From sequence record PP129558: 64,000 nt of DNA, one strand, 5' to 3'. Positions 12,386 through 58,975 of the stretch are shown one piece after another. The position numbers and the translations under genes are program-made. The notes beneath the pieces were generated by a model. It searched no databases. It had not been told where the DNA came from and saw only the letters and a list, made by a program, of their open reading frames with translations. The stretch is from Escherichia phage vB_EcoM_01. Within the stretch, counting starts at the first letter, position 1. Every line of letters starts with the position of its first letter.

Positions 12386-12390
12386 GAAAA

Positions 12391-12417
12391 GGAGCCATTT
12401 GGCTCCTTTCTTTTATA
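12391..12417. terminator. bidirectional terminator between convergent genes
   Basis: ggagcc-attt-ggctcc hairpin flanked by A-run upstream and T-run downstream. Confidence 0.6.
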
Positions 12418-12441
12418 AAAACTCTTTATAAATCAATAAGA

Positions 12442-13329
12442 TCAGAACGGAATATCATCATCGAAGTCCATTGGAGGTTCTTCTTGATTGCTTGGAGTTG
12501 GTTCTGGTTGTGGTTCAGGCTTTTTAACTTCTTTCTTCTCTTCTTTCTTAGGTTGTTCTGCGGAACCACGAATGGCAGCAGCAACTTTATCAGACAAAGC
12601 TAGAACTTTACGAGCAGAGTCAATCAGATCTTCTACAGATACAGTCTTAATGGTATGGTCTTTACAAGCATTGAGAATAGCGTGACCAACAGATGCCCCA
12701 AGATCATAATCATTAATATCAACGCCACGAGATTCAGCAATTTCAGATTTCAGCGTGACAGTTGCAGATTGAACAACCCCAGCGATATCGAAAGCATCGC
12801 CTTTAACACCATTACGAATCAGTTCCAGTGCACCATTTACTGCGTGACCAGTTTCCAGACCTACAGTATCACGTTTTTTATAGGACTGCTTAGGAGCAGC
12901 ATCGTTGGAACCTTTATTGCCAGAAGATTTGTTAGACTTCTGAACACCATCGGTAGACAATACTGTAATACGAGATTTTTTAGTATTGTAGTAAGTTTTA
13001 CCGCCTTTATTATCAACGCGATCAATATCAATACTTACTTCTACACCTTTTTCAATAGTGATCCAATTATCACCTTCTTTGACTTGCAGGTTTTCATAAC
13101 CTTCTTTCAGTTCAATGTCACCAAGAGAAATCCAAACACCTTTCTCATCTGGTTTAGCACCTTTCTCTTTCAGAACAAGAGAGGCTCGGTGAGTTGAAAC
13201 AATCGTTTTTCCTTCCCAATGAAAAGTTTTAGGTTCAGCGAATTTATCCAGTTTAACGTAGTCTACGATACCAGTTGCATAAGTTACGGTTTTGCCTTTA
13301 CGATCAGTTTCAGTATTAATTACGGACAT
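12442..13329 (-). CDS. single-stranded DNA-binding protein-like
   Basis: 295 aa; Gly/Ser/Lys-rich linker, acidic C terminus ending MDFDDDIPF (E. coli SSB-type tail). Confidence 0.6.
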   Translation of the reverse strand: MSVINTETDRKGKTVTYATGIVDYVKLDKFAEPKTFHWEGKTIVSTHRASLVLKEKGAKPDEKGVWISLGDIELKEGYENLQVKEGDNWITIEKGVEVSIDIDRVDNKGGKTYYNTKKSRITVLSTDGVQKSNKSSGNKGSNDAAPKQSYKKRDTVGLETGHAVNGALELIRNGVKGDAFDIAGVVQSATVTLKSEIAESRGVDINDYDLGASVGHAILNACKDHTIKTVSVEDLIDSARKVLALSDKVAAAIRGSAEQPKKEEKKEVKKPEPQPEPTPSNQEEPPMDFDDDIPF

Positions 13330-15006: not shown

Positions 15007-18000
15007 TCAATGACAGGATGCCCAGGAATTACCCACGTCATATCCGGCAGTAAGCTGAACGTTAAGATTGTAAAATTCTCCAGCCTTAGTAACAGCTAAA
15101 GCAGCAAGCTCACCTGCCCGACTATAAGCTGTAAACCATCCACCTTTAGGAGATTCATGAATGTTAGCCCAAATTTGCCCTGTCTCTTTTTCCTTATTAT
15201 GCTTCCATTCTTCAACTTTAGCAAGGCATTCTTTATCAATTTTCTTTTGTTCTTCAGGATCGTCTACTTTCTTCCAACCTAATGATTCAGGTGAAAACCA
15301 TTTAAATTCTACAAGGTTACGAGAAACTTCAAGCTGGGCTTCATCGTGATATGCAATCATTTGTTGCACGAAGTCTTTATTCTTCCAGTCATCTTTAAAG
15401 AAGTCAACACTTAGCCCTTCTTCTTCTATCATGTCGTCATAAATAACCATTGCACGTTTAGCGCAGATAACCCCACCACTTTGGAACAGAGAGTTAAGAA
15501 TCGCGTGAGCAGAACGAGTAGGAACCTTACGACCGTCAATACCCAAAACATACTGTTTACCAGTCTTAACCCAGAAATCGTTTAAACGTTCTTTAAGACG
15601 TGCCAGTGGGAATGCAGCTTCCCAGAAAGCATCAAACACCAATTGACCTGTAAACTTATCGCTACCAATTGTTTTAGCAACCTTGTCGGCTTGTGCACCA
15701 TAGGTAATACCATACTTAACAGATTTAGCAGGACTACGTTCAAATTTACGTCCAATAGTTTCAGTGATACGTTTTGCCATCATTGTGTGAACATCGTTAG
15801 GTTTCTCTAACAACAGAGCGTTACAATATTCATGTGGCTCCGGCTCGTACCGCCAACAGTAGTGTGATTCAATTTTTGCTTCCAAAGAGTCGAAGTCGTA
15901 GCCGATCTGGAAGTATTTAGGCNNGTCTCTTATACACATCTGACGCTGCCGACGACAGACGTGGTGTGTAGATCTCGGTGGTCGCCGTATCATTAAAAAN
16001 NNNNNNNNNNNNNNNNNNNNNNNNNNNNNNNNNNNNNNNNNNNNNNNNNNNNNNNNNNNNNNNNNNNNNNNNNNNNNNNNNNNNNNNNNNNNNNNNNNNN
16101 NNNNNNNNNNNNNNNNNNNNNNNNNNNNNNNNNNNNNNNNNNNNNNNNNNNNNNNNNNNNNNNNNNNNNNNNNNNNNNNNNNNNNNNNNNNNNNNNNNNN
16201 NNNNNNNNNNNNNNNNNNNNNNNNNNNNNNNNNNNNNNNNNNNNNNNNNNNNNNNNNNNNNNNNNNNNNNNNNNNNNNNNNNNNNNNNNNNNNNNNNNNN
16301 NNNNNNNNNNNNNNNNNNNNNNNNNNNNNNNNNNNNNNNNNNNNNNNNNNNNNNNNNNNNNNNNNNNNNNNNNNNNNNNNNNNNNNNNNNNNNNNNNNNN
16401 NNNNNNNNNNNNNNNNNNNNNNNNNNNNNNNNNNNNNNNNNNNNNNNNNNNNNNNNNNNNNNNNNNNNNNNNNNNNNNNNNNNNNNNNNNNNNNNNNNNN
16501 NNNNNNNNNNNATCATTGTGTGAACATCGTTAGGTTTCTCTAACAACAGAGCGTTACAATATTCATGTGGCTCCGGCTCGTACCGCCAACAGTAGTGTGA
16601 TTCAATTTTTGCTTCCAAAGAGTCGAAGTCGTAGCCGATCTGGAAGTATTTAGGAACCTCTACACCAAACAAGTTACGCATCTCCCATCCAAACAAAGAT
16701 GTGACACGAGGAATGTTAGCTACAGACCTATGCTTCATACGAGAGGTTGCAGCATCACATGTAGCTGCTGGGGTAGGAATACGACCATCCGCCCTTACTG
16801 CGGCTAAGAAACCTTTATCGTATTCTTGATCTTCTTCATCTTCTTCCCAATCAGCACCGCCACCTAAAATAGAGTTCCTACGATGCTTATACGTTAAGTA
16901 TTCTACAATCTGTGTAGCATAAGGGAATTTCTCACCCAAAGCTTGCAGGTTAGGACAGATTTCTTTTTCCTGACCTTTGGTAAAACATGGGTTAGTCAAT
17001 ACTTTAAGACCGCGACCTTTACCTTTTGCTATACGCTCTTGAATCTTCCTTTCCAAGGTTTCCGGTGTGCACTCCAGATGATCACAACGGTCCTGACAAA
17101 AATTAGAAGATAAAGTTTGCTCAACGTAAGCTCGAATACCTTTCTGAAGTTCTTCCTCGCTCTTTTTAATCTTGGTGCCAGATTTAAGAGTCAAGTCTTT
17201 ATCTTTATATTCAGACGGTACCCAACCTAATCCTACAAGCCAGTTTTTAATATGGGTTGTATCGTTCAATGTTGCAGGGATGTGAGGATCACATAAAGGC
17301 TCATCTGCTGCAACTGGCAGTTTCCACTCTTTCCCCAACATAACTAACCACCAATCTCCATCCCTCTCTTCCAAATGACCATCATGTTTCTTAGCAAAAT
17401 TGATCATATGGTTAGTTGGCTCTAAGTTCTTTTTAATTTGCAACTTAGGTGGAATAAAAGCCTTAAGATAGCCTTTTGTTGCTGGTTTAGGTGGCAAAAT
17501 AGGCTCAACGAGTAAACGAAGACGCTCCATTTCTGCATCCAAAAAAGCAAGGTTCTCTTCTGCTTGCTTCATGTTAAAAGCAAATCCACGGTGTTCCTGG
17601 CGTGTAATAATGTCTGCTACACGTTGTTCAAGTTCAAATGGACCTTCCCATTTATCATAATCACCCCACTCTTCCATAAGGTAATTATATACGCTTGTAT
17701 TAGCTTTGTTGTCATAGATACAGTAATAAAGCATATCCGCAGCAAAAGTCTTAAATCGATCTTCTTCTGGAATCTCTTTACGGAAATCTATTTTTACATC
17801 ACCACCTGCTTTTCGAGAAAGTGCTGCCAAGCTATGTCCTGATTTGCCCTCAATCTTTCGATCTGGGTTTAACACTTTACTCAAAATCAAGGAGTCAATA
17901 AGTTTTACCTTATTTTTGCCCCACGTATTATATTTAACACTGTAATCTAATCCATAAAACAGTTTTGTAGCCAACCAGTCGTAGTTGATACCGTTGTGAG

Positions 18001-31820: not shown

Positions 31821-32258
31821 TTAACGTCGCTTGCTACGAGATGAACTCTTTTTACTTAAAGGACTATTGTAAGATTTACGAGTTGTATAGCTGCTATTTG
31901 TTTTAAAAGTTTGTCTCGGCTTTTCATAAGTTTTTATCTCTTGTTTAGGCTTACCATAAAAATTAGTTTTCGGTTTAGGTGTGTTATAATGTTTATTAAT
32001 AATCGTTCTGTTATCGTTATAATCCCCGCCGCTACGATTACTACCACCGCTCATCATATGTCCTAACAACATACCTGTAGCAAACTCACCAACACCGCTA
32101 CTACTAGAACCGCCACCATTGTTGATAATAGTTGTATCTCCGTCAGATCCTTGTTGAGTGTATTGTTGAGGAGGTTGTTGATATTGTGTAGGATTTGTTT
32201 CATCCTCGCAAGCTGTTAAAAAGATACAACCAATTAAAATCAGGGCTAGTTTTTTCAT
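31821..32258 (-). CDS. Gly/Ser-rich lipoprotein
   Basis: Start at ATG 32258 (MKKLALILIGCIFLTAC: signal peptide plus lipobox) with GAGGAAAG RBS. Confidence 0.5.
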   Translation of the reverse strand: MKKLALILIGCIFLTACEDETNPTQYQQPPQQYTQQGSDGDTTIINNGGGSSSSGVGEFATGMLLGHMMSGGSNRSGGDYNDNRTIINKHYNTPKPKTNFYGKPKQEIKTYEKPRQTFKTNSSYTTRKSYNSPLSKKSSSRSKRR

Positions 32259-32441
32259 ATTTGCTTTCCTCGTTTTGACTATTAATACATCTGTGTTTGA
32301 AATCTCCAGAGAAGCAATAAAGCTGCTCTCCATCTCGGTATAAACTCACTTTACTGCCGTTGATTACGCTTGTCAATACAAAAATTACAACAAACAACCC
32401 TATTGCAAAACAAATATTTTCAAACACAACCAACAAGTATT

Positions 32442-32792
32442 TCATTTTAAAAATACCTCATCATCAGTTTCATTATCCCAGAAGAACAAATCCCAACCAT
32501 TAGGATCATTCCACTTGGCGGCTGGAGAAGTCCAGATTTGTTCGATATCAATATTCAAAACTTCGCCGTTTCGTTTTGAAACAGCCTTGGTTAATTCCCA
32601 ACGAGATACAGGTTCTACCTCTCCTGAACCACTTCCACAACAAGCTACTACGTTAGGAGGAAGGTTAATTGGATCTTTGGTCACAATCATAACGCTTACC
32701 CCAGGGTAAACTTTTGAAAGATAATCTGAAACGTAATCAACATCACCAGGTAAATCCCAAACAAGTTTTTGAATTTCATCAAAATTACTCAT
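32442..32792 (-). CDS. hypothetical protein
   Basis: 116 aa ORF. Confidence 0.5.
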   Translation of the reverse strand: MSNFDEIQKLVWDLPGDVDYVSDYLSKVYPGVSVMIVTKDPINLPPNVVACCGSGSGEVEPVSRWELTKAVSKRNGEVLNIDIEQIWTSPAAKWNDPNGWDLFFWDNETDDEVFLK

Positions 32793-32800
32793 AAGTCTCT

Positions 32801-32828
32801 CCTATAAAATAGCCTCCCGAAGGAGGCT
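32801..32828 (-). terminator. rho-independent terminator after terC
   Basis: gcctcc-ttcg-ggaggc hairpin followed by TATTTTAT on minus strand. Confidence 0.5.
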
Positions 32829-32834
32829 CATCTA

Positions 32835-33809
32835 TTAAACAGTAGCTTCTTCTTTTTCAGGGAAGATAAAGCTTGCAATAACACCAAGAGCTAATGTGCC
32901 TAGAACAATCATCAGACTTACGTTAGGGGAAATATCATGCGGGAGGAATGACCACTTGGCATGAAGTGTTTCACCGAACGGGTGATACATAAGTTTAGCA
33001 CCAACAAACACCAGAACCACAGCAACAGCTTTCTCTAAGTGAACCAAATATTTCACAGCTACACTTAACACAAAGAAAAGTGCACGTAAACCAAGAACAG
33101 CCATCAGCATTGCAGAATAAACTAGCAGAGGTTCTTGTGTCACACCGATCACAGCCGGAACTGAATCAAAAGAGAAGACAATATCTGTAAGCTCAATAAC
33201 AAACACACAAAGAAGAGCAGGAGTTGCATATTTAATACCATTCTTAATGGTAATGAACTTTTCACCATCCAGTGCATTGTGCACAGGCAGAACTTTACCT
33301 ACTAAACGAACAGCCCAATGCTTAGAGTAATCAATATCCTCTTCTTCGTCACCACCTTTGATGATAGCCACGGCAGACCAAGCTACAATCAAACCGAACA
33401 ACACTTGGACCGACCAATGAAGGTTAAACAAAGCGGTCCCTGCTGCAACAAAAATACCTCGGAAGACAATGGCTCCTGCAATCCCCCAAAGTAAAATCTT
33501 ATGTTGGAGATGTGTGCTCTTAATTCCAAAGCTTGCAAAAATTGCCATGAACACCATCAGGTTATCTACAGAAAGACTCTTTTCCAACACATAGCCACTT
33601 AGGAAAAGCGCGGCAAACTCTTTACCATGTTCTACCCAAATGAATGCGTAATATCCTAAAGCTAAAGCAATCCAAAAAACAGACCAAAGCAAAGCAGATT
33701 TAATTCCAATTTCTTTATTCTCTTTATGACCAAAGAAATCGATACCAATAGACAATGCTAAAATACCAACTAAAACAACTACATCAATAATTGGGAAACC
33801 AAGTTGCAT
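32835..33809 (-). CDS. terC: TerC-family integral membrane protein
   Basis: 324 aa, multiple TM helices; hallmark SGYVLEKSLSVDNLMVF motif. Confidence 0.8.
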   Translation of the reverse strand: MQLGFPIIDVVVLVGILALSIGIDFFGHKENKEIGIKSALLWSVFWIALALGYYAFIWVEHGKEFAALFLSGYVLEKSLSVDNLMVFMAIFASFGIKSTHLQHKILLWGIAGAIVFRGIFVAAGTALFNLHWSVQVLFGLIVAWSAVAIIKGGDEEEDIDYSKHWAVRLVGKVLPVHNALDGEKFITIKNGIKYATPALLCVFVIELTDIVFSFDSVPAVIGVTQEPLLVYSAMLMAVLGLRALFFVLSVAVKYLVHLEKAVAVVLVFVGAKLMYHPFGETLHAKWSFLPHDISPNVSLMIVLGTLALGVIASFIFPEKEEATV

Positions 33810-33826
33810 TCTTTTCTCCTCTCTTT

Positions 33827-33885
33827 GCGGGGAACTATTCCCCGCTTCATGTGATATATCTTACTCTTTTTAAGAACTATGTCAA
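33827..33885 (-). promoter_or_regulatory. promoter plus 5' hairpin module upstream of terC (same architecture as the 55.7-59.9 kb array)
   Basis: minus strand: TTGACA-16 nt-TAAGAT-atatcacatga-GCGGGGAA tagt TTCCCCGC-RBS-ATG. Confidence 0.55.
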
Positions 33886-33888
33886 CAC

Positions 33889-34110
33889 TTATTTTGTTGA
33901 ATGAGAGGAAAAGATTCCTCGTAATACAGCCAGAATAAACGAAACACAAACCACGGTCCAGAAGGTTACTGGAACAGTGATATCTGCATGACCCATAACT
34001 TCAGCAACATAGTTGTAAGCCAGCAACAGTAACCAAGCTGGAATCAAACTAAGCATAAAAGCAATAACAAAAAAGCTTACCACTGCAACAATACCTGCAA
34101 AAACACCCAT
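33889..34110 (-). CDS. small membrane protein (two TM helices)
   Basis: 73 aa, two hydrophobic helices. Confidence 0.5.
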   Translation of the reverse strand: MGVFAGIVAVVSFFVIAFMLSLIPAWLLLLAYNYVAEVMGHADITVPVTFWTVVCVSFILAVLRGIFSSHSTK

Positions 34111-34122
34111 ACTAATCTCCTC

Positions 34123-34608
34123 TTAAAGTTTATAAATAGTCACATCGTGACCAGCTTTTACTAAAGTTTCTTTGATCATGACTTCAATGATAGCCCAATT
34201 ACCTCCAGCATGACCTGCACCTATCATAGGTAGACCAATCTTATGTGCTGGTTGATCTCCTTTATCGTAATTGTGTAAGTCCATTGCCATAGCTGCAAGA
34301 GCATCATATAGCGCATCATAATCTAGTTGACGACCTTTACTATTGTATCCATAACGATACTGTCCATAAAGGTTGTATACCATAGGGTTAGGATAATCTT
34401 CTGGTTCCCCTAAACTAAAAGAACCAAGCTTTTTCTGGTTTCCTGCTCCTGTAGCTAAATCTGCTTCGTATGCATATGGAAACGCATATTTTATTTGTGG
34501 GGCAATACCTGCCCCCATATTACACATACAGTTGCAACAATGAGCAATAACAGTTACTTCACCTGCTTTAGCGGCATCAATAAGATTACCTGTTTTCATT
34601 TTAAGCAT
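34123..34608 (-). CDS. macro-domain protein (ADP-ribose binding/processing)
   Basis: VIAHCCNCMCNMGAGIA and LPMIGAGHAGGNW resemble macro-domain Gly-rich loops; start at ATG 34608 with AAGGAG RBS (track ORF extends to 34713). Confidence 0.55.
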   Translation of the reverse strand: MLKMKTGNLIDAAKAGEVTVIAHCCNCMCNMGAGIAPQIKYAFPYAYEADLATGAGNQKKLGSFSLGEPEDYPNPMVYNLYGQYRYGYNSKGRQLDYDALYDALAAMAMDLHNYDKGDQPAHKIGLPMIGAGHAGGNWAIIEVMIKETLVKAGHDVTIYKL

Positions 34609-34621
34609 TTTTAGCTCCTTA

Positions 34622-35284
34622 TTACAGAACATGTTGTTTTGTGTAACGATCCAAGAATTCAAAGTTTTCAGCATACTTTGAAATTCGGTTGTAACCTTCT
34701 CCCAAACATCCAAAGAAAAGTTGCTCTACATAGTAGTGTGGCAATTGGCTAAGAATGATTTTGAAGTCTTCGTGATTTTGGCCCATAAGATACTTAATAG
34801 GACGAACAAGGCACTGTGCATCACGTTCTTCATTAATCATTTTAACAAACGCTTCTGGTGTATTAATATAATTAAAATTCAGTTTAGCTTCGGTATCTGC
34901 TTGATTACCTTCATATTTTGCAAAATACAAGAAGTAAACATCATTTTTAACTTGATTTTCATCAAGGATCTCAATCAGTTTGTCTTCATGAGTTCCAGTG
35001 ATATTTACATCATCAATAAACACAAGCTTCTTATCACCCCAGAATTCTTTGTTGCAGTAGAATGTATCCCCATCAATAAGTTTCTTACGACTAGCTTTAT
35101 CCAAGAAACCATAATCGTTGATATAGCTAACTTTACGATGAATAATATCCAGTTCTGCTGAACGACCTTGGTCATATTGTGATTGCAACATATTAAAGTA
35201 ATTAATAAAATGATCTGTCATCATTGTTGCAGCATTATGCACATGGTTGTAAGGAGAAGGAATGATAACAAATTGTTCCCCCAA
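34622..35284 (-). CDS. phosphoribosyltransferase (type I PRTase fold); N terminus uncertain
   Basis: KKLVFIDDVNITGTHEDK is a PRPP-binding motif; track start is TTG; upstream ORF 35235-35450 could be the true N terminus via a shift at a G5 run. Confidence 0.65.
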   Translation of the reverse strand: MGEQFVIIPSPYNHVHNAATMMTDHFINYFNMLQSQYDQGRSAELDIIHRKVSYINDYGFLDKASRKKLIDGDTFYCNKEFWGDKKLVFIDDVNITGTHEDKLIEILDENQVKNDVYFLYFAKYEGNQADTEAKLNFNYINTPEAFVKMINEERDAQCLVRPIKYLMGQNHEDFKIILSQLPHYYVEQLFFGCLGEGYNRISKYAENFEFLDRYTKQHVL

Positions 35285-35442
35285 TATGTTTCATTGCTAC
35301 TTGAGCAAAAAACTGAAGTGCCAATTCTTTACCCATACGACGCGCAGCTTGGTTACTACCAAATTTCAATTTTGAATAATCTTGGATATCAAAAGTAGCA
35401 GTTTCCAGATCATCAAATTTATTTGCAAAAATTTGAGTTTGA

Positions 35443-36099
35443 TTACGCATTTACAATTTCTCCTCTTTTAAGTTTCTCTAGTAAGTCGTTAGGGTTCTTA
35501 ATATGACAGAAGTTAAATCCTAAGTCAACACATTTTCCATCATATTCTTCACTATCGCCTACGTGCAATACTTCGTGCCCTAACAGAGGGATCGGAGAAT
35601 ACGTGAGCGTGCGAGCAAAGAATCGCGGATCTGGTTTACAAAGTAAAGCTTCATCTGAGAAATGGGTGAACTCAAAACAATTCCAACTATCAAACTTACA
35701 AGCACGACGCAGGATATCCCCTGATATGAAGTTGGTATTGCTCTTAATACTCAAATCATAACGCCCCGAAAGATACAGCAAGTACATCGGCAGATCCACG
35801 GCTACGTGTGGTGGAAACTTAAGGAACCACTGTTCACACTCGAAACGAAGCTTTGCAGACTTCCAAGGCGTTATCCCAAGTTCAGAACCAAGTCTTTCCC
35901 AAGCGTATGCTGCACACTCGGCTTTGCCTTGAAGTGCTGCATTATCCAGTTCCTTTTTGATCTTTTTATAAGCTGCTCTTGCTTCCACTTCCGTAATATC
36001 TCCATATTTTGCGATAGTCCAGGCTCGCATGTCTGCGTAATTGGAGTTTGCTGTGATCAGTGTGTTCCATACATCAAAAGAGATATGTTTAATAGTCAT
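35443..36099 (-). CDS. HAD-superfamily hydrolase
   Basis: 218 aa; motif I ISFDVWNTLI, motif III KPDPRFF, motif IV HVGDSEEYD. Confidence 0.7.
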   Translation of the reverse strand: MTIKHISFDVWNTLITANSNYADMRAWTIAKYGDITEVEARAAYKKIKKELDNAALQGKAECAAYAWERLGSELGITPWKSAKLRFECEQWFLKFPPHVAVDLPMYLLYLSGRYDLSIKSNTNFISGDILRRACKFDSWNCFEFTHFSDEALLCKPDPRFFARTLTYSPIPLLGHEVLHVGDSEEYDGKCVDLGFNFCHIKNPNDLLEKLKRGEIVNA

Positions 36100-36100
36100 A

Positions 36101-36706
36101 TTAAGCCCACCATGCGTCTAAGTTAAGATTACTGTCCACTACCACTTGTTCTATGTGGTAGCCTTTTATCTGTATCCCACTGTTCAAGAGCATATCATAC
36201 GCTTCATTGAAACGCAACTTATCTTCTGCGGAATATAAGCGAGCATTATAAAATCGGTAATCAATTTCTTCAGCATTAGAAGAAATACGGAAGAAGTTTG
36301 TTTCTACTTCGGGATCACTTGCTGAAGTCTTAATGTGAACTTCTCCGTAATTTTCTTTACTTAGATCCATGAAAAGAACACAGGCAACATGTTTAAACAT
36401 TCGTTCCAGTTTGTAACGAACAACATTGAAACCTGCATTCTCAAGTTTTTCTACACACTGCAACATTAAAGTAGTGTCGAGATCGCTTTGATACTTTGTT
36501 AACATACGATCACGTTGAGACTTTGTATCCCGATGTAAATCAATTGTTGTGCATTTGGCACCAATAATCTTAGCTGCTTTCATCAACTCTTCAGAACTAA
36601 CGTTAGATAAAGTAAGATGAAAATGGGCTTTCCACACTTTTTTAGCAGGGACACCAAAAGATTTATCCCCACTATTCGGCATGTTGACTACTACACTATG
36701 TTGCAT
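36101..36706 (-). CDS. hypothetical protein (weak 2H phosphoesterase-like signature)
   Basis: 201 aa; HFHLTL and VHIKTS as possible H-x-T/S-x pairs; weak. Confidence 0.4.
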   Translation of the reverse strand: MQHSVVVNMPNSGDKSFGVPAKKVWKAHFHLTLSNVSSEELMKAAKIIGAKCTTIDLHRDTKSQRDRMLTKYQSDLDTTLMLQCVEKLENAGFNVVRYKLERMFKHVACVLFMDLSKENYGEVHIKTSASDPEVETNFFRISSNAEEIDYRFYNARLYSAEDKLRFNEAYDMLLNSGIQIKGYHIEQVVVDSNLNLDAWWA

Positions 36707-39308: not shown

Positions 39309-40727
39309 TTATCGTTTGGAGAGGAATTGTCTTCCCATGATCTTACCGTTCTTTACAGCGGTCCCATCGTGTCCATTATAATCCCAAGTTCCATCAATGT
39401 TACGCAAGAAGCTATCACGAACAGTGTAGGCTTTACCGTTCTCTACTTTACTTTCTTCAACAATGATTGCCATAACAAGCTTATTTTCAATTTCGGTAGT
39501 AACCGATTCTTTAATACCCTCTGTAACTTCACGATCATATTGGATATAAACTCGCTCCTCGGTCACTTGCACGTCTACCACATTTTTAAATGTGTATGTC
39601 TGCTGTGTAGTGTAAAGGACACGAACAACACTCTTCTTACCTACTGGCGGCTTCTTACGAGGCTTACGGTAACGTGGTTTAGGGTTGTTAGTTGGAAGCC
39701 AACCAACAATATCCCGATCATATCCAACATGACCCCAAGTGAAATGCGTAGCCGATCCACTATCCGTAGTTCCGTCACGAAAGAGAACTTCTACGTGACC
39801 ACCACAAGGGCGGTGTCCACCATTATTATAGTTGTATTTTGCCGTGCGCGGGAGAATGAAGTATTCTTTAATTGCCCACTCTTCCAGATTGTCGATATTC
39901 CAAGTGAATACTGTTCCCTTAGCAACATCTGTTTGACCATTGTTGAAGCGAACCTGCACGAAATCTTCTGAAGGCATAACACCTGTGTTCGGCAGATATT
40001 CAAATGCAGTATCTTCCGCTACAAACTGTTCTTCCTCTTGCTCCTCAATACTTGGCACAGGCGCAGCTTCATCGTATTTCGCAGCAAACATATTTTTAAA
40101 TTCTTGAGCCGTGACTTCTACAAGGCCGCGATCACCAGTAGCAACAGAGTGTGGGCGTGGTAAATCCCCAACTTCAATATGCATTGCATCTAAGCCTGCT
40201 TGACGATCAAAGAAGATAACCTTGCGGAATTGTTTATCTTTATATTGTGGCAGTTCATACATACTTGGATCGATTGTCTTCAAACGTTCAGCATCTTCTG
40301 GCTTCCAGAAGCTTTTACCTGTTGCAAATCTAAAGTCTACCAGTAGTTTAACAACATCTCCTAATGATAAACTATCTGCATCTACGAAAACGTCTTCGAT
40401 TCCCAATAACCCTGATTTCTTAAGAATCAGATCTAACATGTAACCTCCTGTGGTTTGTTCTGCGTCTGGATAACGATCAACACTGGTGCTGGTTACACCG
40501 TTTATTTCACCAGTGGAGGCATTGTAGGAAATATATGGGAAGGTCATATCGTTCATTGCAAAATCACCTGAACAGGTTGGATCATCTTCTCCCTCCCAGC
40601 CATACACCTTCACAATACCTTCACATAATTTGTCATACACACCAGCGCGACGTGCTGCTTCAGCAACTTCCTGTTTACGGGCAAATTTATTAATCATGAT
40701 TCCTCCTGTTAATTGCCATAGATGCAC
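39309..40727 (-). CDS. hypothetical protein
   Basis: 472 aa ORF, no motif recognised. Confidence 0.55.
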   Translation of the reverse strand: MHLWQLTGGIMINKFARKQEVAEAARRAGVYDKLCEGIVKVYGWEGEDDPTCSGDFAMNDMTFPYISYNASTGEINGVTSTSVDRYPDAEQTTGGYMLDLILKKSGLLGIEDVFVDADSLSLGDVVKLLVDFRFATGKSFWKPEDAERLKTIDPSMYELPQYKDKQFRKVIFFDRQAGLDAMHIEVGDLPRPHSVATGDRGLVEVTAQEFKNMFAAKYDEAAPVPSIEEQEEEQFVAEDTAFEYLPNTGVMPSEDFVQVRFNNGQTDVAKGTVFTWNIDNLEEWAIKEYFILPRTAKYNYNNGGHRPCGGHVEVLFRDGTTDSGSATHFTWGHVGYDRDIVGWLPTNNPKPRYRKPRKKPPVGKKSVVRVLYTTQQTYTFKNVVDVQVTEERVYIQYDREVTEGIKESVTTEIENKLVMAIIVEESKVENGKAYTVRDSFLRNIDGTWDYNGHDGTAVKNGKIMGRQFLSKR

Positions 40728-41247
40728 GAGGTTCGGCTATGGCTGTTGCATAAATATATGGATGACCTTGTGGGGACAATCTTGTTCCGAATGACCCTAA
40801 TTCTAAACCATTCATGTCTTCCACGTCAAGCCCTATTTCTGTTTCTACAATTCTTGTTTGGACTTTGTAGTAGGTCCAGAAGAAGTATCGCATTTCTTCG
40901 GCATACTCTTTCACTTCACCAAAGCTGGGATAGAACTCAATCAACTCCAGCTTCAAGAAGATGTTGAAGTGAGAATCATCCAACACTTCCTCTGTGCGGT
41001 AACATGGTGTCAGGGCCATGTAGGGATGACCAGCGATAAACTCGTAGCCATCCTTTTCCATTTGCAAGAATGATTGCTCGGCACTGGCAACATAAAACTT
41101 CCCATTAGGATGCCCCAAAGGAGCATCTTCTTTGCCAGGTGGCAGTGTGAATGCCAAAATATCTGCATCCACTAAATAAGGAACATCTAACATTTCAGCA
41201 AAGCGTCCATAACTCTGGATGGCTTCGGCAATCACACCTGTGTTCAT
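40690..41247 (-). CDS. hypothetical protein
   Basis: 185 aa ORF. Confidence 0.5.
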   Translation of the reverse strand: MNTGVIAEAIQSYGRFAEMLDVPYLVDADILAFTLPPGKEDAPLGHPNGKFYVASAEQSFLQMEKDGYEFIAGHPYMALTPCYRTEEVLDDSHFNIFLKLELIEFYPSFGEVKEYAEEMRYFFWTYYKVQTRIVETEIGLDVEDMNGLELGSFGTRLSPQGHPYIYATAIAEPRASMAINRRNHD

Positions 41248-41495
41248 GACCTTCCTCCTGTGCGAAACGCACGTTTAGTAATGTTTGACATAATGATCAA
41301 ATCTTGTAAAGTCGTACCTGGGAACTGTTGTTCTAACACTCCCTCGACAGCACCTATAATATCAGATAGTTCAACAAGTTGCATTATTTTGCAATCCTGT
41401 TCAACAGCATCGAAAAGTTCTTCCACTTCCTCTTTAATCTTTTCTATGCTTCCGTAAGATTGTTTCTTAATGTCTGTTATGTGATACCCTGCCAT
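41244..41495 (-). CDS. hypothetical protein
   Basis: 83 aa ORF. Confidence 0.45.
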   Translation of the reverse strand: MAGYHITDIKKQSYGSIEKIKEEVEELFDAVEQDCKIMQLVELSDIIGAVEGVLEQQFPGTTLQDLIIMSNITKRAFRTGGRS

Positions 41496-43088
41496 TTAAC
41501 GATCCTCTCTGATTTGATTAATCTTACGAGCAAGGGCAGCTATAAGTTTATCTTCTTCAGATACAGGAGCCGTGCTCTTACCTAAACGATGCATGTCTAA
41601 AATCTCTTGAACAGTTCGGTTCCATTGCAGGCATTTAATACAACGTGTATGTGCAACATACAGAAGATTTCGTTCTGATTCTTCAAGACCTACCCACTCA
41701 CCCTTCTTATCATAATTGGAAGGAAAGTCATTTGCAACAATAACCTGATCCCACTCCAAGCCTTTTGATTTATGGGCTGTAGTTAAAGTAACTTTAGCCG
41801 TTGGGGAGTTACGGTGCATACGCAGAGTGTATGCAATATTACTAGCTTTACCAGAGACAACAATATTTAAAAGTCGTTTTGCATCAGGATCTGATTCTGC
41901 ACACTCTACGAACTCTTCCCAAGAAGTGTAAGGGAGAACTGTCTCATGTTTAACTTTGTCCAAATCTCCTCTACGTAAAGCATTAACGCTGTCAACCATA
42001 GAAATGAAATCTTTGGTATCTACGTTAATAATAATCTCTTCTCCGTTAGCGATTCGATCCATAGCTTCGAGCAACAGGGTCAAATTCTTACGGAAAATAA
42101 TGGTGTAAGGTTTACTATAATCTACCACATCAGAATGAAAACTTCCAGTGACAGTATCATAACCTTTGCCTACCAGCGGATGCTTCAGAGGTGAGCGATC
42201 AGAAAGGATCGCATTAGCAATGTCCGCAACTTTAGGACCAAAGCGAAAACAAGCTGTCAGAGGCAACTCAACCCCATATGTAGCCGTTTGCTTCATCATG
42301 TTCTGGCTTCCACGGAACTGATAAATACTCTGAAATTCATCACCCACAACAACAATACGTTTAGCCGATTTAGCATTGCGAAGGATAGACAGGAATGCAG
42401 GGTTAACATCCTGGAATTCATCTCCAAAAATAATATCATATCCTAAATCTTCTTTACTCAATTCGAAGAGTTTCACATAGGTGTCATGAGTCATAATGGT
42501 TTCTGATTTAGGATCAATACGCTCACGCCAAAGTTGCTTCGCATATTTAACAACTTCGTTAATAAGTTTTTGTTCGTTGATATTCTTACGTTTAAGATCT
42601 GACATATGCACTTTAGGAAAATGTTTATGTCCAATATGTTCATCGTCAGAAAACTCATATTTAGCTAAAGTTTGTTTTACCATTAACCCGATCATTGCAC
42701 GAGTCAGTAGCACTTTACCATTCTTATCAATCAAGTTCTGAATCTTGAATTTTTTGGCAATCTCACTACCAGTTCCAGCTACGTTAACATATTGACCTTC
42801 TGGACGAGACAATTTGTGTCGAAGGTTTTGTGGAAGACGCTGGTAACAGATTGAATGTAGCGTTCGGCACATAACATTAGGCGGCATTTTACGTCGAGCT
42901 TCCTCTGCCATACTTTTGTTAAACGCCAAGTATAGAATACTGTCATTTGTGCCATTAGCCAACATATACAGTGTTGACGTTTTACCTGATCCAGATTTAG
43001 CTTGAATTGTAACGAAACGATTTTCTTGATACCCACTTTCAATAGCATATTGTTCATCGGTAGGTGTAAAACTCAATTGTGTAGACAC
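41496..43088 (-). CDS. superfamily 1 DNA helicase (UvrD/RecD/Dda-like)
   Basis: 530 aa; Walker A QAKSGSGKTS, Walker B IIFGDEFQDV, C-terminal TTAHKSKGLEWDQVIV. Confidence 0.7.
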   Translation of the reverse strand: MSTQLSFTPTDEQYAIESGYQENRFVTIQAKSGSGKTSTLYMLANGTNDSILYLAFNKSMAEEARRKMPPNVMCRTLHSICYQRLPQNLRHKLSRPEGQYVNVAGTGSEIAKKFKIQNLIDKNGKVLLTRAMIGLMVKQTLAKYEFSDDEHIGHKHFPKVHMSDLKRKNINEQKLINEVVKYAKQLWRERIDPKSETIMTHDTYVKLFELSKEDLGYDIIFGDEFQDVNPAFLSILRNAKSAKRIVVVGDEFQSIYQFRGSQNMMKQTATYGVELPLTACFRFGPKVADIANAILSDRSPLKHPLVGKGYDTVTGSFHSDVVDYSKPYTIIFRKNLTLLLEAMDRIANGEEIIINVDTKDFISMVDSVNALRRGDLDKVKHETVLPYTSWEEFVECAESDPDAKRLLNIVVSGKASNIAYTLRMHRNSPTAKVTLTTAHKSKGLEWDQVIVANDFPSNYDKKGEWVGLEESERNLLYVAHTRCIKCLQWNRTVQEILDMHRLGKSTAPVSEEDKLIAALARKINQIREDR

Positions 43089-43102
43089 GTATTTCTCCTC
43101 TC

Positions 43103-43618
43103 TTAATAAAAACTCTTGACAATCCTCATCATTTCCTTAGCTCTGCTGGCGTAAGGTTCTTTTAGATTAGGTGGCAAATGTGCATTAATGTATCCCATTT
43201 GTTTTTCCCATGTCCACTTATCTTTAAATCTTGGCATGGTGTCTCCTGCTAAACTGTTTTCTTTTCGTGTTTGAATAATCCAATTGCATGGAAAATGCAC
43301 ACCACCTTTACGGAAGGGAATATAATGTCCCAATGTGAATGCCTTATTGTTCTTTAAACGTCCAGCTAAATTAAGATTAACAATAAGACTACGAAACACG
43401 TAGTATTGATAAAGATTGTCAACAGTATATACAGAGTAGTATGCTCTAAGTGCATTATCTCTACTAAGATTACCAACATCCAAACTGCACCAGTTTAAAT
43501 TACTTGGATCGTAGTTGTGATTATCAATCCATTCTTCTCTTTCCTCAAATTCTGCATTAACAGCAGACTGCCCTGCTGTAGATACAAAAAGAGAATTTGC
43601 ATCAAAGAACATACTCAC
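43103..43618 (-). CDS. hypothetical protein
   Basis: 171 aa ORF. Confidence 0.5.
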   Translation of the reverse strand: MSMFFDANSLFVSTAGQSAVNAEFEEREEWIDNHNYDPSNLNWCSLDVGNLSRDNALRAYYSVYTVDNLYQYYVFRSLIVNLNLAGRLKNNKAFTLGHYIPFRKGGVHFPCNWIIQTRKENSLAGDTMPRFKDKWTWEKQMGYINAHLPPNLKEPYASRAKEMMRIVKSFY

Positions 43619-43625
43619 TCCCCCT

Positions 43626-44036
43626 TTAGTTTACATCGTTTAGAGCATTACCAATCTTTAAGATAATAACATCATTAAGAGCTTCTTCTCCATTAAGGCC
43701 AGAGAAAGCAGGAGTAACGAAAGTTACCATATAATAATGGTCTTCTTGTAGGATTGCGATAACGCCATCTAGTTTAACATCTCCTGTGAAACGAAAAACT
43801 TTCAACTTTTGTTCTAAAGGAAGATCTCCTTCAACATTTAAAACCATATCTCCGACACCAAACTTTTCTGCCCCGATGTAGATGTAAGCTTGGTCCTCTT
43901 TTTTATGATAATACAATGTTGCTTGTTTGTCTTGTAGTGTTGTGATACCAAACACATCTACATCAATAATATTTTTCAAAAATTCTCCTCCCAAATCCAA
44001 TAATTGTCTACATAAGTAGGATGCCTTTTGTCCCAC
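43626..44036 (-). CDS. hypothetical protein
   Basis: 136 aa ORF; overlaps upstream ORF, start uncertain. Confidence 0.4.
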   Translation of the reverse strand: MGQKASYLCRQLLDLGGEFLKNIIDVDVFGITTLQDKQATLYYHKKEDQAYIYIGAEKFGVGDMVLNVEGDLPLEQKLKVFRFTGDVKLDGVIAILQEDHYYMVTFVTPAFSGLNGEEALNDVIILKIGNALNDVN

Positions 44037-49431: not shown

Positions 49432-49458
49432 TAGGGGNTAATATGNTTNAGTNNNGAG

Positions 49459-50385: not shown

Positions 50386-50397
50386 GAGGGGAAGTTT

Positions 50398-51973: not shown

Positions 51974-53146
51974 ATGGCGAAGACGTTAGAACAGTATATA
52001 GGAGAATGTAAACCAATAGCGGAAGCTAAAGGATATGAGATTATAGGGATTGTAGAGCCATTTAAAGNAGGTGTGCACACGAAGATGATCAACTTCTGCC
52101 CTAATCNNNNNNNNNNNNNNNNNNNNNNNNNNNNNNNNNNNNNNNNNNNNNNNNNNNNNNNNNNNNNNNNNNNNNNNNNNNNNNNNNNNNNNNNNNNNNN
52201 NNNNNNNNNNNNNNNNNNNNNNNNNNNNNNNNNNNNNNNNNNNNNNNNNNNNNNNNNNNNNNNNNNNNNNNNNNNNNNNNNNNNNNNNNNNNNNNNNNNN
52301 NNNNNNNNNNNNNNNNNNNNNNNNNNNNNNNNNNNNNNNNNNNNNNNNNNNNNNNNNNNNNNNNNNNNNNNNNNNNNNNNNNNNNNNNNNNNNNNNNNNN
52401 NNNNNNNNNNNNNNNNNNNNNNNNNNNNNNNNNNNNNNNNNNNNNNNNNNNNNNNNNNNNNNNNNNNNNNNNNNNNNNNNNNNNNNNNNNNNNNNNNNNN
52501 NNCTGCCTGCTCTCACGATGAGTATGTGCAAGCTGGGGTGTGTGATGGTAAGTTTTATGTCGCAGGGAATGACCTTAAACAAGGGAAGATTCCTTGCCGT
52601 TGTGCAACTAACTGTCATTACACAGAAGCACAGATTACCTATAGGGTAAAAAAGGCAGTAGAAAGGAAAGGGTATATCTGGGTAGGTTGGATCGGGAAAC
52701 CGTCTGTAAGATTAGGTAAGTTTAAATATGGATGTAAGAAACATGGGGTACAAATAGGACGTGCCAGTGGTTTGTTAAATCATGGTACTGGTTGTCCGCA
52801 ATGTGCTAACCAGACACAACAACAATGTTACATTAACCACATCCATGATGAACAAGGTATTCTCTGTGCTTTGAAATTTGGAATTGCCAATAATAGTGAT
52901 CGCCGTATCAAAAAACAAAATAGTCATAATGTGTTTACTATGAAACAGGTCCAAGTGTGGCACTTCCCTACTGTGAAGCAATGCAAAGATGCAGAGAAGC
53001 GTTGTAAGCGTGTCCTTCACACGGAAGCAGTGAGCAAATATGCTATGCCAGATGGCTACACAGAGACAGTGGAGTTATCTTGCATGGCATCAATACAAAA
53101 CATTTATAAACTTTATGGTGGAACATTACAGGAGGAAACATGTTAG
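51974..53146 (+). CDS. Cys-rich protein (zinc-ribbon motifs), interrupted by gap
   Basis: C-terminal 214 aa after gap has CRCATNC and CPQC; N-terminal 44 aa before gap; internal sequence unknown (52107-52502 N). Confidence 0.4.
   Translation: MAKTLEQYIGECKPIAEAKGYEIIGIVEPFKXGVHTKMINFCPNXXXXXXXXXXXXXXXXXXXXXXXXXXXXXXXXXXXXXXXXXXXXXXXXXXXXXXXXXXXXXXXXXXXXXXXXXXXXXXXXXXXXXXXXXXXXXXXXXXXXXXXXXXXXXXXXXXXXXXXXXXXXXXXXXXXXXACSHDEYVQAGVCDGKFYVAGNDLKQGKIPCRCATNCHYTEAQITYRVKKAVERKGYIWVGWIGKPSVRLGKFKYGCKKHGVQIGRASGLLNHGTGCPQCANQTQQQCYINHIHDEQGILCALKFGIANNSDRRIKKQNSHNVFTMKQVQVWHFPTVKQCKDAEKRCKRVLHTEAVSKYAMPDGYTETVELSCMASIQNIYKLYGGTLQEETC
52107..52502. other. scaffold gap (N-run)
   Basis: 396 n. Confidence 0.95.
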
Positions 53147-55308: not shown

Positions 55309-55495
55309 GGTATCGCCCTTTCTTTGTTGTGCGCCCAGGTTGGCGCGGTAGAAAGATGATAGCCGTTTCCTTCATATATAGCAAGCAAAAAGAAAATAAA
55401 AAAGATTGAAAAAGTGGTTGACGTTCCTCACCTGGTAGCNNNNTANTCNACCGTCCACCAACAAAAAACATCATTCATCACCTGGAGTTAAAATC

Positions 55496-55783: not shown

Positions 55784-56056
55784 ATGGCATCATATAGCGC
55801 AACAATGATCGTAGCTGGCACCACTGGTAAACCTATGTGCGGTGGCGGATCTTTCGCTAATATCAATATTGACGGGCGTTTATCCCTGGACGCAGCGATC
55901 ACCGTGGCGCGGGAAACATTTAAGAAAGAATGTAAATTCAATAAACAAGATTATCTCGGTTTCGCTATTGAAAAAACCGCGCGCTTTGTTGATTATAAAA
56001 GCCCGAAAATGGTTGATACTACACTAAAAGCGCAAGATGTAGCGTTTTTGCTTTAA
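55784..56056 (+). CDS. hypothetical small protein (array gene)
   Basis: 90 aa; AGAGAGATTATC RBS; preceded by module. Confidence 0.6.
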   Translation: MASYSATMIVAGTTGKPMCGGGSFANINIDGRLSLDAAITVARETFKKECKFNKQDYLGFAIEKTARFVDYKSPKMVDTTLKAQDVAFLL

Positions 56057-56059
56057 GGC

Positions 56060-56114
56060 TTGACATTAACGAATAATTTGTTTATATGTTACATAAAGCG
56101 GGAATAGTTCCCGC
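56060..56114 (+). promoter_or_regulatory. promoter plus 5' hairpin module
   Basis: TTGACA-17-TATATG...GCGGGAA tag TTCCCGC. Confidence 0.55.
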
Positions 56115-56132
56115 TATTTGTAAGGTGGTAGA

Positions 56133-56390
56133 ATGTTTTACATCAAATTAAAAGGTCACGTGATCGCGTTCAAAGATAACGCTTTTTACAGATTAGCAAA
56201 ATATGCGTTAATACATCCCCACTATGTTTATATAAGGGGGCGTGATGAAATAAATATCTTTGATCAAACAACATGCGAGAACATCGAGATCCGCAAGGTT
56301 GGCGTACGTGATTATCGTACATCTTTCTACCCTTGCAAGGATTCAGCAAGTCTTTTTAAAGTATGCCGATTGTTGAAAAAAGGTGGTTAA
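56133..56390 (+). CDS. hypothetical small protein (array gene)
   Basis: 85 aa; AAGGTGG RBS. Confidence 0.55.
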   Translation: MFYIKLKGHVIAFKDNAFYRLAKYALIHPHYVYIRGRDEINIFDQTTCENIEIRKVGVRDYRTSFYPCKDSASLFKVCRLLKKGG

Positions 56391-56949
56391 TATGGGCCGC
56401 GAATATGTGATCCAGTCTTGGGTAAAACATGAAGCAGATGATCCGCGCATCATTCCTGATTATCTTGTCGATGAATCCACGGGCTATAGCGGGGAGCAAA
56501 TAGGTAACAGATCAGCACGTAGTAACGGCAACGTAAAAGCGCGTTATGTGCGCCCTGGCTGGCTGGCAAATGGTAACGCTGATTTATCCAGTGCGGAAGA
56601 TGCGAGCGACGGCGCGAAAGATAATCCTTTGTACAAAATTGATCCGGCTTTTCGTGTCCTGGATGAATACCCCAGCAAGATAGCGGCGCTCGATCAAGCC
56701 CTGGAAAGTAAGCGCATCACCTGGACCGCTTACAACATGGCAAAAAACGTACTTGATGGTAAATTGATTCAAGCTGAAAGAAAATTAGCCAAAATTGCAG
56801 CCATAGCCCAGGAGGAAGACGAGGAGACAACGGAAGAGGAAGAGTACGAAGAGATCCCGCCGTTGTTGTGTGTTGATGCTTTTCCTGATTATCAGCCGAC
56901 AGAGGAAGAAAAAAGGATCGCGCTAGAAAACTTTGAAAATAGTCTTTGA
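56383..56949 (+). CDS. hypothetical protein with highly acidic C-terminal region
   Basis: 188 aa; EEDEETTEEEEYEE tract. Confidence 0.55.
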   Translation: MVNMGREYVIQSWVKHEADDPRIIPDYLVDESTGYSGEQIGNRSARSNGNVKARYVRPGWLANGNADLSSAEDASDGAKDNPLYKIDPAFRVLDEYPSKIAALDQALESKRITWTAYNMAKNVLDGKLIQAERKLAKIAAIAQEEDEETTEEEEYEEIPPLLCVDAFPDYQPTEEEKRIALENFENSL

Positions 56950-57003
56950 CATATCGCCGCCACTGGCATAATATTTACCACGTAGGGCGGCAATGGTGCC
57001 GCT
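56946..57003 (+). promoter_or_regulatory. promoter plus 5' hairpin module
   Basis: TTGACA (overlapping upstream stop)-17-TAATAT-ttaccacgtag-GGCGGCA atgg TGCCGCC. Confidence 0.55.
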
Positions 57004-57031
57004 CATAGTGAAATTATGCAAGAGGTTTACA

Positions 57032-57127
57032 ATGATTAATAAAGAAAATAGCTTGACGGTTGGAACGATTAACGCTATCATTTTCGCCGTTCCATTTTGG
57101 GTTGTAGTAGCGGCTATTATTTTCTAA
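57032..57127 (+). CDS. small hydrophobic peptide (31 aa)
   Basis: AAGAGG RBS 7 nt upstream; MINKENSLTVGTINAIIFAVPFWVVVAAIIF; not in track. Confidence 0.45.
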   Translation: MINKENSLTVGTINAIIFAVPFWVVVAAIIF

Positions 57128-57136
57128 AAAATATTC

Positions 57137-57196
57137 TTGACAACGTTTTTTAATCTGATAAGATGTATCACATAGGGCGGCGGAATACTTCCCCGC
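57137..57196 (+). promoter_or_regulatory. promoter plus 5' hairpin module
   Basis: TTGACA-16-TG-a-TAAGAT-gtatcacatag-GGCGGCGGAA tac TTCCCCGCC. Confidence 0.6.
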
Positions 57197-57218
57197 CAAA
57201 ACAAAAAAGGGTAACACA

Positions 57219-57581
57219 ATGAGCAAGCAAATCAATACTATCATGTTTAATCTGGTATCTTTCCGCGATGATATGAAAAATTTACCACGTGAAACGGTTG
57301 ATATTCATGTTTCAGCTTATCGCGCCCTTATTGATATGTTACCGCTAAAACGTGATCAACATGCCGCTAATATGATGCTTAATGCTATGCTTAAAAAGAT
57401 GATTCAAACGGATCTTACTCTGGCGTATGAGTATCAAGGGCGCTTATATGCGACTTACAACAAGGCGGTACCTGGTCTAGGAAGTACCGAAGAGTTGCAC
57501 GGCTTAAACCTGGATCAAAACACTTGGGATAGTATGCGCCGCGTTATGGTATGGGCCGAAAGCGGTAAAATTTACGAATAA
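57219..57581 (+). CDS. hypothetical protein (array gene)
   Basis: 120 aa; AAAAGGG RBS. Confidence 0.6.
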   Translation: MSKQINTIMFNLVSFRDDMKNLPRETVDIHVSAYRALIDMLPLKRDQHAANMMLNAMLKKMIQTDLTLAYEYQGRLYATYNKAVPGLGSTEELHGLNLDQNTWDSMRRVMVWAESGKIYE

Positions 57582-57587
57582 AAACGG

Positions 57588-57647
57588 TTGACACTGTTTA
57601 AAATTCTAGTATAGTTTACCACATAGGGCGGGAAGTGGTTTCCCGCC
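57588..57647 (+). promoter_or_regulatory. promoter plus 5' hairpin module
   Basis: TTGACA-16-TATAGT-ttaccacatag-GGCGGGAA gtggt TTCCCGCC. Confidence 0.6.
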
Positions 57648-57669
57648 AACAATGAAAAAGGTTAACATC

Positions 57670-58035
57670 ATGGCTANNANTNNNAANNNTNNTGNTTATG
57701 CTACCCTGGCTAACACTGCTAAAATTGAACTATCCAGCATTGAAGCGGTACATATTAGCGCCCGTCGCTGGTTTCAAAAGTCTTATGGTAATACTTATTT
57801 CTCTTTGATGGTTGACGTTGAGATCGGCGGTAAACTGATCGAAGTGGTTAACGTTCCGTTTCAATATGGCTATGGGGATCATTTTGATACCGTTGCCCTA
57901 GAAGAGTTTAGCAAGGTTATCAACCTGGAAGGTAAAGAATTTTCAAATTATGCCTACCTTTCCCGTTTTTGCCGTGATAATGGGATCGCTGTATACAGTC
58001 ATGCAAGCGATGTTAAACGTAAAAAAGATTTATAA
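57670..58035 (+). CDS. hypothetical protein (array gene); contains ambiguous bases
   Basis: Start placed at ATG 57670 with AAAAAGG RBS (track begins 57652 inside hairpin); n bases at 57677-57694. Confidence 0.5.
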   Translation: MAXXXXXXXYATLANTAKIELSSIEAVHISARRWFQKSYGNTYFSLMVDVEIGGKLIEVVNVPFQYGYGDHFDTVALEEFSKVINLEGKEFSNYAYLSRFCRDNGIAVYSHASDVKRKKDL

Positions 58036-58041
58036 AAAGCA

Positions 58042-58100
58042 TTGACAGCACGAATAAAAAGAGTAAACTGTATTACATAGAGAGCGGGAATAGTTCTCGC
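58042..58100 (+). promoter_or_regulatory. promoter plus 5' hairpin module
   Basis: TTGACA-16-TAAACT-gtattacatagag-GCGGGAA tag TTCTCGC (G-U wobble). Confidence 0.55.
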
Positions 58101-58124
58101 CTCACTGAAAAAGAGAGAAAAATC

Positions 58125-58364
58125 ATGGCTAAATCTAAAATGTACAACGGTCACAAAAACAAAACTCATTGGAATGTAAGCCTGTGGATTAATAACGATG
58201 AGGGATTGTATCGGTTTGCATTGGGATTGATCAATGAGTGCGGTAATAAAGATCAGGCGGCTGATTTAATGTGCTACCGTTTGAAACAGGATGGAATCAC
58301 TACAACGCCAGACGGCTTTAAGTATAGTAAAACTGCAATCCGCGCCGCTATGGTTGGAATGTAA
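58125..58364 (+). CDS. hypothetical small protein (array gene)
   Basis: 79 aa; AGAGAGAAAAATC RBS. Confidence 0.55.
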   Translation: MAKSKMYNGHKNKTHWNVSLWINNDEGLYRFALGLINECGNKDQAADLMCYRLKQDGITTTPDGFKYSKTAIRAAMVGM

Positions 58365-58373
58365 TAAAAACAG

Positions 58374-58432
58374 TTGACAACGTTTAAAATTAGTGTAAGA
58401 TGTATCACATAGGGCGGGAAGTGGTTTCCCGC
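58374..58432 (+). promoter_or_regulatory. promoter plus 5' hairpin module
   Basis: TTGACA-16-TAAGAT-gtatcacatag-GGCGGGAA gtggt TTCCCGCC. Confidence 0.6.
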
Positions 58433-58455
58433 CAACAACAGAGAGATTAAAGATT

Positions 58456-58683
58456 ATGGCTATCAATATTGTTCGTGTATCCGGCACCGTTGGCAGTTCC
58501 CAGGTTGTAGCAGTTGTAACAAACAAAAAGATTAATGATGTATGTGAGATCTTGAATAAGTGGGCTATTGCTAATTTTGGGGAATATGCAAGCGTTGAGT
58601 ACATCGAATCCTACCAGGTGCCGACCATCAGCCTAACCGATCTCAACGTTGATCGCCTGTTATGCCTGGATGAATTAATCTGA
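58456..58683 (+). CDS. hypothetical small protein (array gene)
   Basis: 75 aa; AGAGAGATTAAAG RBS. Confidence 0.55.
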   Translation: MAINIVRVSGTVGSSQVVAVVTNKKINDVCEILNKWAIANFGEYASVEYIESYQVPTISLTDLNVDRLLCLDELI

Positions 58684-58692
58684 AAAAGATTG

Positions 58693-58748: not shown

Positions 58749-58773
58749 TCACAACAGAAGAGAGATTATCACG

Positions 58774-58910: not shown

Positions 58911-58975
58911 TAATAAGGCGGGGAATACTTCCCGCCACGCAGTGAATTTTCCGTTTGGGAAGTAAAAAATAAATC

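Follow-up and report, generated by a model that had tools for sequence, protein, structure and literature searches.

The DNA analysed here, referred to as the window, is a stretch of 64,000 nucleotides of Escherichia phage vB_EcoM_01 (record PP129558) and belongs to Phapecoctavirus, i.e. to the phAPEC8-like E. coli phages of the Stephanstirmvirinae. Over 1.9 kb around the site described below it shows 95-98% identity to 39 phage records, nearly all of them named E. coli phages, with DIJ07P2 and WPEC1/2/4/6 as top matches (98%). The region carries, on the minus strand, a phosphoribosyltransferase (PRTase) gene that lies between a HAD-family hydrolase gene and a macro-domain gene and that is divided by a G run into two overlapping open reading frames:

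35443..36099, minus strand: HAD-family hydrolase gene, its 3' end overlapping the PRTase start codon by 8 nt
34622..35450, minus strand: complete ComF-like phosphoribosyltransferase gene (PF15610 / phrog_13415)
35235..35450, minus strand: 5' fragment ORF with ATG start, 71 aa, TAA stop at 35237-35235
35278..35282, minus strand: run of five G (C5 on the plus strand) where the single base is inserted; GGGG or GGAG in relatives
34622..35284, minus strand: 3' fragment ORF with mechanical TTG start, 220 aa, in the frame one base further 3'
34123..34608, minus strand: macro-domain (Poa1p/DarG-like) gene, 161 aa, directly downstream of the PRTase gene and used as lineage marker

Around the G run the coding (minus) strand reads ...GCA ATG AAA CAT ATT GGG GGA ACA ATT TGT..., with the five G at 35282..35278, corresponding to ttccccc at 35276-35282 of the plus strand, exactly where the preliminary description of this DNA had placed them. 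That description had understood the two ORFs as one gene split by a one-base change in the length of the G run, the removal of one G restoring the frame, and our analysis confirms this. Its estimate of about 285 aa for the fused protein was too high, as the deletion of one G results in 828 nt encoding 275 aa; the PRTase gene has 829 nt in the window compared to 828 nt (275 aa) in all relatives. The 3' ORF does begin at the TTG that had been given as its start, but this codon is a mechanical boundary only and is not preceded by a Shine-Dalgarno (SD) sequence. In the 71-aa ORF the first 57 residues are authentic, whereas the last 14 before the TAA (GTICYHSFSLQPCA) are out of frame; residues 2-220 of the 3' ORF correspond to residues 57-275 of the intact protein, including the PRPP-binding motif LVFIDDVNITGTH. 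Both frames are open simultaneously over 35290-35238 only.

This two-ORF layout is not due to chance: the fused translation matches PF15610, phrog_13415 and the TSP7_1 protein. It covers positions 9-264 of the 264 positions of the Pfam profile PF15610 (PRTase_3, ComF-like) with an E-value of 1.3e-41, and the score of the corrected 275/276-aa translation is 143.2 bits, the gathering cut-off being 28.7, which makes it a member of this family. The match to phrog_13415, a family in the PHROG category 'unknown function', spans residues 1-275 of the fused protein, and the identity to the TSP7_1 protein is 100.0% over 275 aa. As a PRTase gene it is an ordinary representative of a known Pfam/PHROG family, with intact annotations in dozens of relatives. 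Its intact orthologues within PF15610 / phrog_13415, such as phAPEC8 YP_007348585, TSP7_1 QPX72046 and phi92 gp186, show the same full profile coverage, the same PRTase motif and the same HAD hydrolase partner, whereas in the window the frame is broken after residue 57. Some GenBank records give the gene the putative name 'orotate PRTase', and literature searches on the PRTase family in Phapecoctavirus returned nothing useful.

The type I PRTase motif, for which we looked for a hydrophobic strand followed by two acidic residues and x-x-x-T-G-x-T, is present in the fused protein as D146 D147 x x I150 T151 G152 T153. Together with H154, the residues D146, D147, I150, T151, G152 and T153 are invariant in 54 sequences. 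A sequence search against the PDB gave only marginal matches to HGPRT (E about 0.5), confined to the PRPP-binding motif. An AlphaFold2 model built from 54 homologues (pLDDT 91.8, pTM 0.88) was compared to the PDB with Foldseek and retrieved HGPRT/HGXPRT, PyrR and H. pylori ComF with a probability of 1.0 and E-values down to 3e-6. The predicted structure thereby shows the type I PRTase fold, and its kinship to solved structures is distant because the TM-scores to those type I PRTases are just 0.35-0.45.

An alignment of the fused translation to its homologues, which had been proposed earlier as the way to see whether the upstream segment is conserved, identifies this segment as a conserved N-terminal part of the family. 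All phage records with a homologue (156/156) carry it as an unbroken single-frame segment beginning at residue 1 (or 6), at identities ranging from 100% to 36%. The best 120 of 241 database clusters all have lengths of 262-293 aa and query coverages of 90-100%, and PF15610 is present in all 120 homologues among the matches listed. Residues F20, Y25, S26, L28, K29, F30, G31, A36, G40 and A44 within the N-terminal segment are invariant in 54 sequences. In the predicted model residues 1-57 form a strand (4-12) and helices (22-29, 33-50 and 52-55) with pLDDT values of 94-98, and the break point falls into the loop between helix 52-55 and the core strand 60-64. These 57 residues belong to the fold and are conserved, and neither fragment is a self-contained domain.

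The start of the gene is set by its neighbourhood. Every annotated relative that we fetched carries a single 828-nt PRTase CDS that overlaps the end of the upstream HAD-hydrolase gene and is followed by the macro-domain gene. The pair of HAD gene and PRTase gene, in this order, is also found in phi92, PsgM04F, Xanthomonas phage XaC1, Rhizobium phage RHph_TM21B and Brevundimonas phage Gurke, in which the annotated PRTase start codons are homologous to ATG 35450 and likewise overlap the HAD gene. ATG 35450 is the true PRTase start because the conserved upstream HAD partner fixes its position.

With the extra G set aside, 827 of 828 nt are identical to an intact single-frame gene: a single synonymous nucleotide and no amino acid separate the corrected gene from that of TSP7_1, and from the genes of other relatives it differs at 14-24 nt but in only 1-3 aa. 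A decaying pseudogene can be ruled out, as the gene has a single lesion and no amino-acid change compared to TSP7_1.

We searched for the G5 allele in other sequences. In 60/60 GenBank relatives among the matches listed, a 120-nt query covering the site aligns to 119 nt, and an alignment with five relatives shows a run of four bases at the site in 5/5, i.e. GGGG and, in WPEC1, GGAG. A 32-nt pattern allowing G4 or G4+1 occurred in the G4 form only, on three metagenome contigs and one GTDB contig; the G5 allele was not found by this pattern search in IMG/VR, JGI metagenomes or GTDB genomes, IMG/VR lacking the G4 string as well. The exact 161-aa macro-domain sequence of the window is present on at least 23 contigs, and in 10/10 contigs shown the PRTase gene beside this exact allele has GGGG and an intact 275-aa ORF. 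A second, independent assembly of this phage was looked for and not found; among the lineage-matched contigs the best one reaches 96.2% identity over 6.5 kb. For the split products (71, 200 and 220 aa) the 153-billion-gene index holds no exact entry. Among the sequences searched, the extra G is private to this record.

In Logan contigs the gene is also found broken in another way, as P0133, a 126-aa member of the PRTase cluster. It differs by a T4->T5 change near the N-terminus and a G4->G5 change at GATGGGGAT, at positions equivalent to 35391-35394 and 35068-35071 of the window, and 9 contigs, the longest of 142.8 kb, carry this version. Frameshifts in homopolymers of this PRTase gene therefore recur in public assemblies.

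Several features of the record bear on how the extra base may have arisen. Untrimmed Illumina Nextera adapter read-through with index and P5 sequence is present at 15925-15999 and 63768-63847, being composed of CTGTCTCTTATACACATCT GACGCTGCCGACGA, the index CAGACGTGGT and GTGTAGATCTCGGTGGTCGCCGTATCATT. As the adapters lie inside the sequence, the record was built from untrimmed reads. Positions 63850-64000 consist of poly-A followed by roughly 150 nt of poly-G with interspersed N, and this poly-G end is a no-signal tail typical of two-colour Illumina chemistry. The record contains 2,193 N, some in blocks and some singly at scattered sites, with concentrations in the variable part (49-64 kb) and within a gene of 1,110 aa near 16 kb:

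1-35, 15923-16511, 49438-49455, 52068-52502, 55440-55449, 57677-57695, 58873-58887: N positions, first part
59249-59303, 59828-59840, 60299-60429, 61337-62283, 63299-63312, 63715-63998: N positions, second part

This pattern looks like the scaffolding gaps and read conflicts of a draft consensus. Among 583 informative homopolymer runs of at least 4 nt, the window has 2 private length alleles relative to all five aligned relatives, and both are +1 changes in G:C runs (2/73 G:C runs compared to 0/510 A:T runs). The allele other than that in the PRTase gene is the following:

50388..50391, plus strand: second private homopolymer allele, G4 vs G3, in the SD-to-ATG spacer TAGGAGGGGAAGTTTATG

At this site 60/60 relatives among the matches listed are one base shorter, the five aligned ones having G3, and the extra G makes the distance between SD and ATG of a small gene one base longer. 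As a test for an artefact the private G-run expansions are only suggestive because the lineage also has 431 private substitutions. A generally indel-ridden assembly, as from nanopore or Ion Torrent reads, is rejected, since the adapters are of the Illumina Nextera type and the PRTase gene is the only frameshifted one.

The preliminary description had left three options for the split, i.e. a sequencing error, a real inactivating mutation or programmed frameshifting. The first, as a sequencing or assembly error, and the second stay, and programmed frameshifting falls away, every homologue being single-frame. That the G5 run directs programmed recoding, by +1 ribosomal frameshifting or by transcriptional slippage, with the split regulating PRTase expression, is extremely improbable. 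A +1 shift of tRNA-Gly on GGG-G would yield the exact wild-type protein, and the next 88 nt form a more stable predicted fold than shuffled sequences do (z = -2.9); but the homologues need no frameshift, with 156/156 phage records being single-frame and all close relatives carrying the 828-nt CDS, and the G run itself is not conserved, as WPEC1 has GGAG and distant homologues have other codons and a variable linker at this place. The downstream stem is not conserved either (consensus energy -0.64 kcal/mol in five homologues), and the same stem is found unchanged in relatives needing no frameshift. The 0-frame A-site codon is GGA and not a stop, and a recoding signal would need to arise from a single private insertion. 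Five G are also far shorter than the tracts used in programmed transcriptional slippage, which takes place on runs of about 9 A/T, tracts typically being 8-9 nt or more. Neither a conserved two-frame arrangement nor a conserved slippery sequence with a stimulatory element was found in this family, and programmed frameshifting is rejected on conservation and is close to refuted. The site shares with E. coli prfB-type frameshifting the +1 frame offset and a P-site tRNA-Gly that could re-pair on GGG-G; unlike that type, it lacks a conserved split, an in-frame A-site stop and a conserved slippery or stimulatory element. Transcriptional slippage at a phase-variable locus is rejected as well, the tract having just 5 nt here and four bases in every relative examined. 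The RNA at 35190-35277 (minus strand) is predicted to form a long A/U-rich stem of -14.3 kcal/mol, which is probably due to chance in AT-rich coding sequence. A functional split into two genes, with the 71-aa piece and a separately initiated C-terminal piece working together or independently, is hardly credible: both ORFs exist and the 3' ORF retains the PRPP-binding motif, but an SD-like motif is absent within 20 nt upstream of both TTG 35284 and ATG 35224, the break lies inside a single compact and confidently modelled domain (pLDDT 91.8, N-terminal blocks 94-98), and a split version is present neither among the best 120 cluster representatives nor among the 156 phage records. An independent start of the 3' ORF is rejected, as neither candidate start is preceded by an SD motif.

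What is found at this locus is an ordinary homopolymer insertion, arising from an assembly error or a very recent mutation rather than from programmed frameshifting. We tentatively judge the extra G to be an error of the draft-quality consensus, a reading to which we give very nearly an even chance and which we hold slightly likelier than a change in the phage DNA. It is favoured because the allele is private, the gene is without decay, the record is a draft, both private run changes are +1 G and another public assembly (P0133) shows such frameshifts in this very gene. According to this reading, one G would have been added (G4 -> G5) to a conserved and otherwise intact 275-aa ComF-like PRTase gene during sequencing, assembly or consensus calling; the phage itself would start at ATG 35450 and produce the usual protein of 275 aa, the two ORFs being an artefact of the record. 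The alternative is a genuine and very recent slipped-strand G4->G5 event, fixed or in the majority in the phage stock and giving a null or strongly hypomorphic allele, for which we see somewhat less than an even chance. The PRTase would then be truncated after residue 57 and be an accessory gene dispensable in culture, a part of this alternative that we regard as just as uncertain. Such a real allele could be slightly leaky, in that rare +1 ribosomal slippage regenerates the wild-type ...HIGEQF..., the identity of the +1 slippage product to the wild type following directly from the sequence. G runs are classical slippage hot spots. The interior base calls look accurate because random errors would not give the pattern observed for the private substitutions, of which 202/246 in conserved CDS are synonymous (82%) and 198/246 are at codon position 3. 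The PRTase is the only clean frameshift among 95 judgeable TSP7_1 genes, and no nonsense changes were found among them; in the syntenic span 94 of 117 TSP7_1 genes are full-length and single-frame in the window, and, the PRTase aside, the others are accounted for by blocks of N, mosaic regions or missing genes. No N or contig edge lies within 14 kb of the site, which is part of a gap-free 33-kb stretch (16512-49437), and the adapters identify Illumina reads, for which consensus-level indels in 5-nt runs are rare at reasonable depth. The 431 private substitutions mark a distinct lineage, so that one or two private indels are compatible with real divergence. Against a real mutation stands the strong purifying selection elsewhere, with 156/156 phage records in a single frame, the best 120 cluster representatives all at 262-293 aa, and the PRTase genes of relatives changed at 14-24 nt but at only 1-3 aa. 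As the gene has neither a second lesion nor an amino-acid change compared to TSP7_1, the mutation would have to be extremely recent, and the poor curation of the record lowers the trust in any singleton indel. The present evidence is mixed and leaves the two readings, consensus error and very recent real mutation, almost equally probable.

A real and selected extra G is very unlikely. The loss or down-tuning of the PRTase may in this case benefit the phage on its propagation host, for example, and with just as small a probability, by escape from a host system that senses the PRTase or its product, with a low wild-type level being maintained via +1 slippage. If this were true, the phage would represent a natural knockout of a phage gene of unassigned function.

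Compared to a draft homopolymer indel or a slipped-strand frameshift as known from other genes, the split shows the same +1 in a short run, the same two overlapping ORFs and a private change in an otherwise identical gene, and we see no feature by which it departs from such cases. The lesion, a +1 change in a homopolymer, is of an ordinary sort, and nothing about it is new in kind. For annotation, this means that the two ORFs should be given as one gene, whose frame is either corrected or marked as shifted; neither a pair of hypothetical proteins nor a case of recoding should be annotated here. The record needs a quality flag and, besides resequencing, the removal of its adapters. A real insertion would provide a ready-made null allele of a conserved HAD hydrolase-linked PRTase, which would be of modest use for the study of this enzyme.

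The window contains further differences from its relatives. Compared to DIJ07P2, TSP7_1 and others, the macro-domain allele carries an in-frame 15-nt insertion (34244-34258) and a 3-nt deletion (~34278), and this 161-aa allele is not an error because the exact protein is present on the public contigs counted above. Private substitutions are clustered in mosaic segments, with 130, 53 and 56 per 4 kb at 40001-44000, 32001-36000 and 56001-60000, respectively, and about 10-20 per 4 kb outside these segments. A tail-fibre-like gene parts from DIJ07P2 at about 12.4 kb (12309-12450), and within the large gene at about 16 kb (15860-16589) the window and TSP7_1 have about 730 nt more than DIJ07P2.

The HAD-PRTase_3 pair, located on the minus strand in the 34123-36706 region of the window, is preserved with overlapping stop and start codons from Stephanstirmvirinae to jumbo Xanthomonas, Rhizobium and Brevundimonas phages. 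The genes next to the pair differ, with a macro domain in the window, NMN adenylyltransferase/Nudix in Rhizobium phage RHph_TM21B and an RNA ligase in XaC1. Pair and neighbours together hint at a nucleotide- or NAD/ADP-ribose-related two-step pathway.
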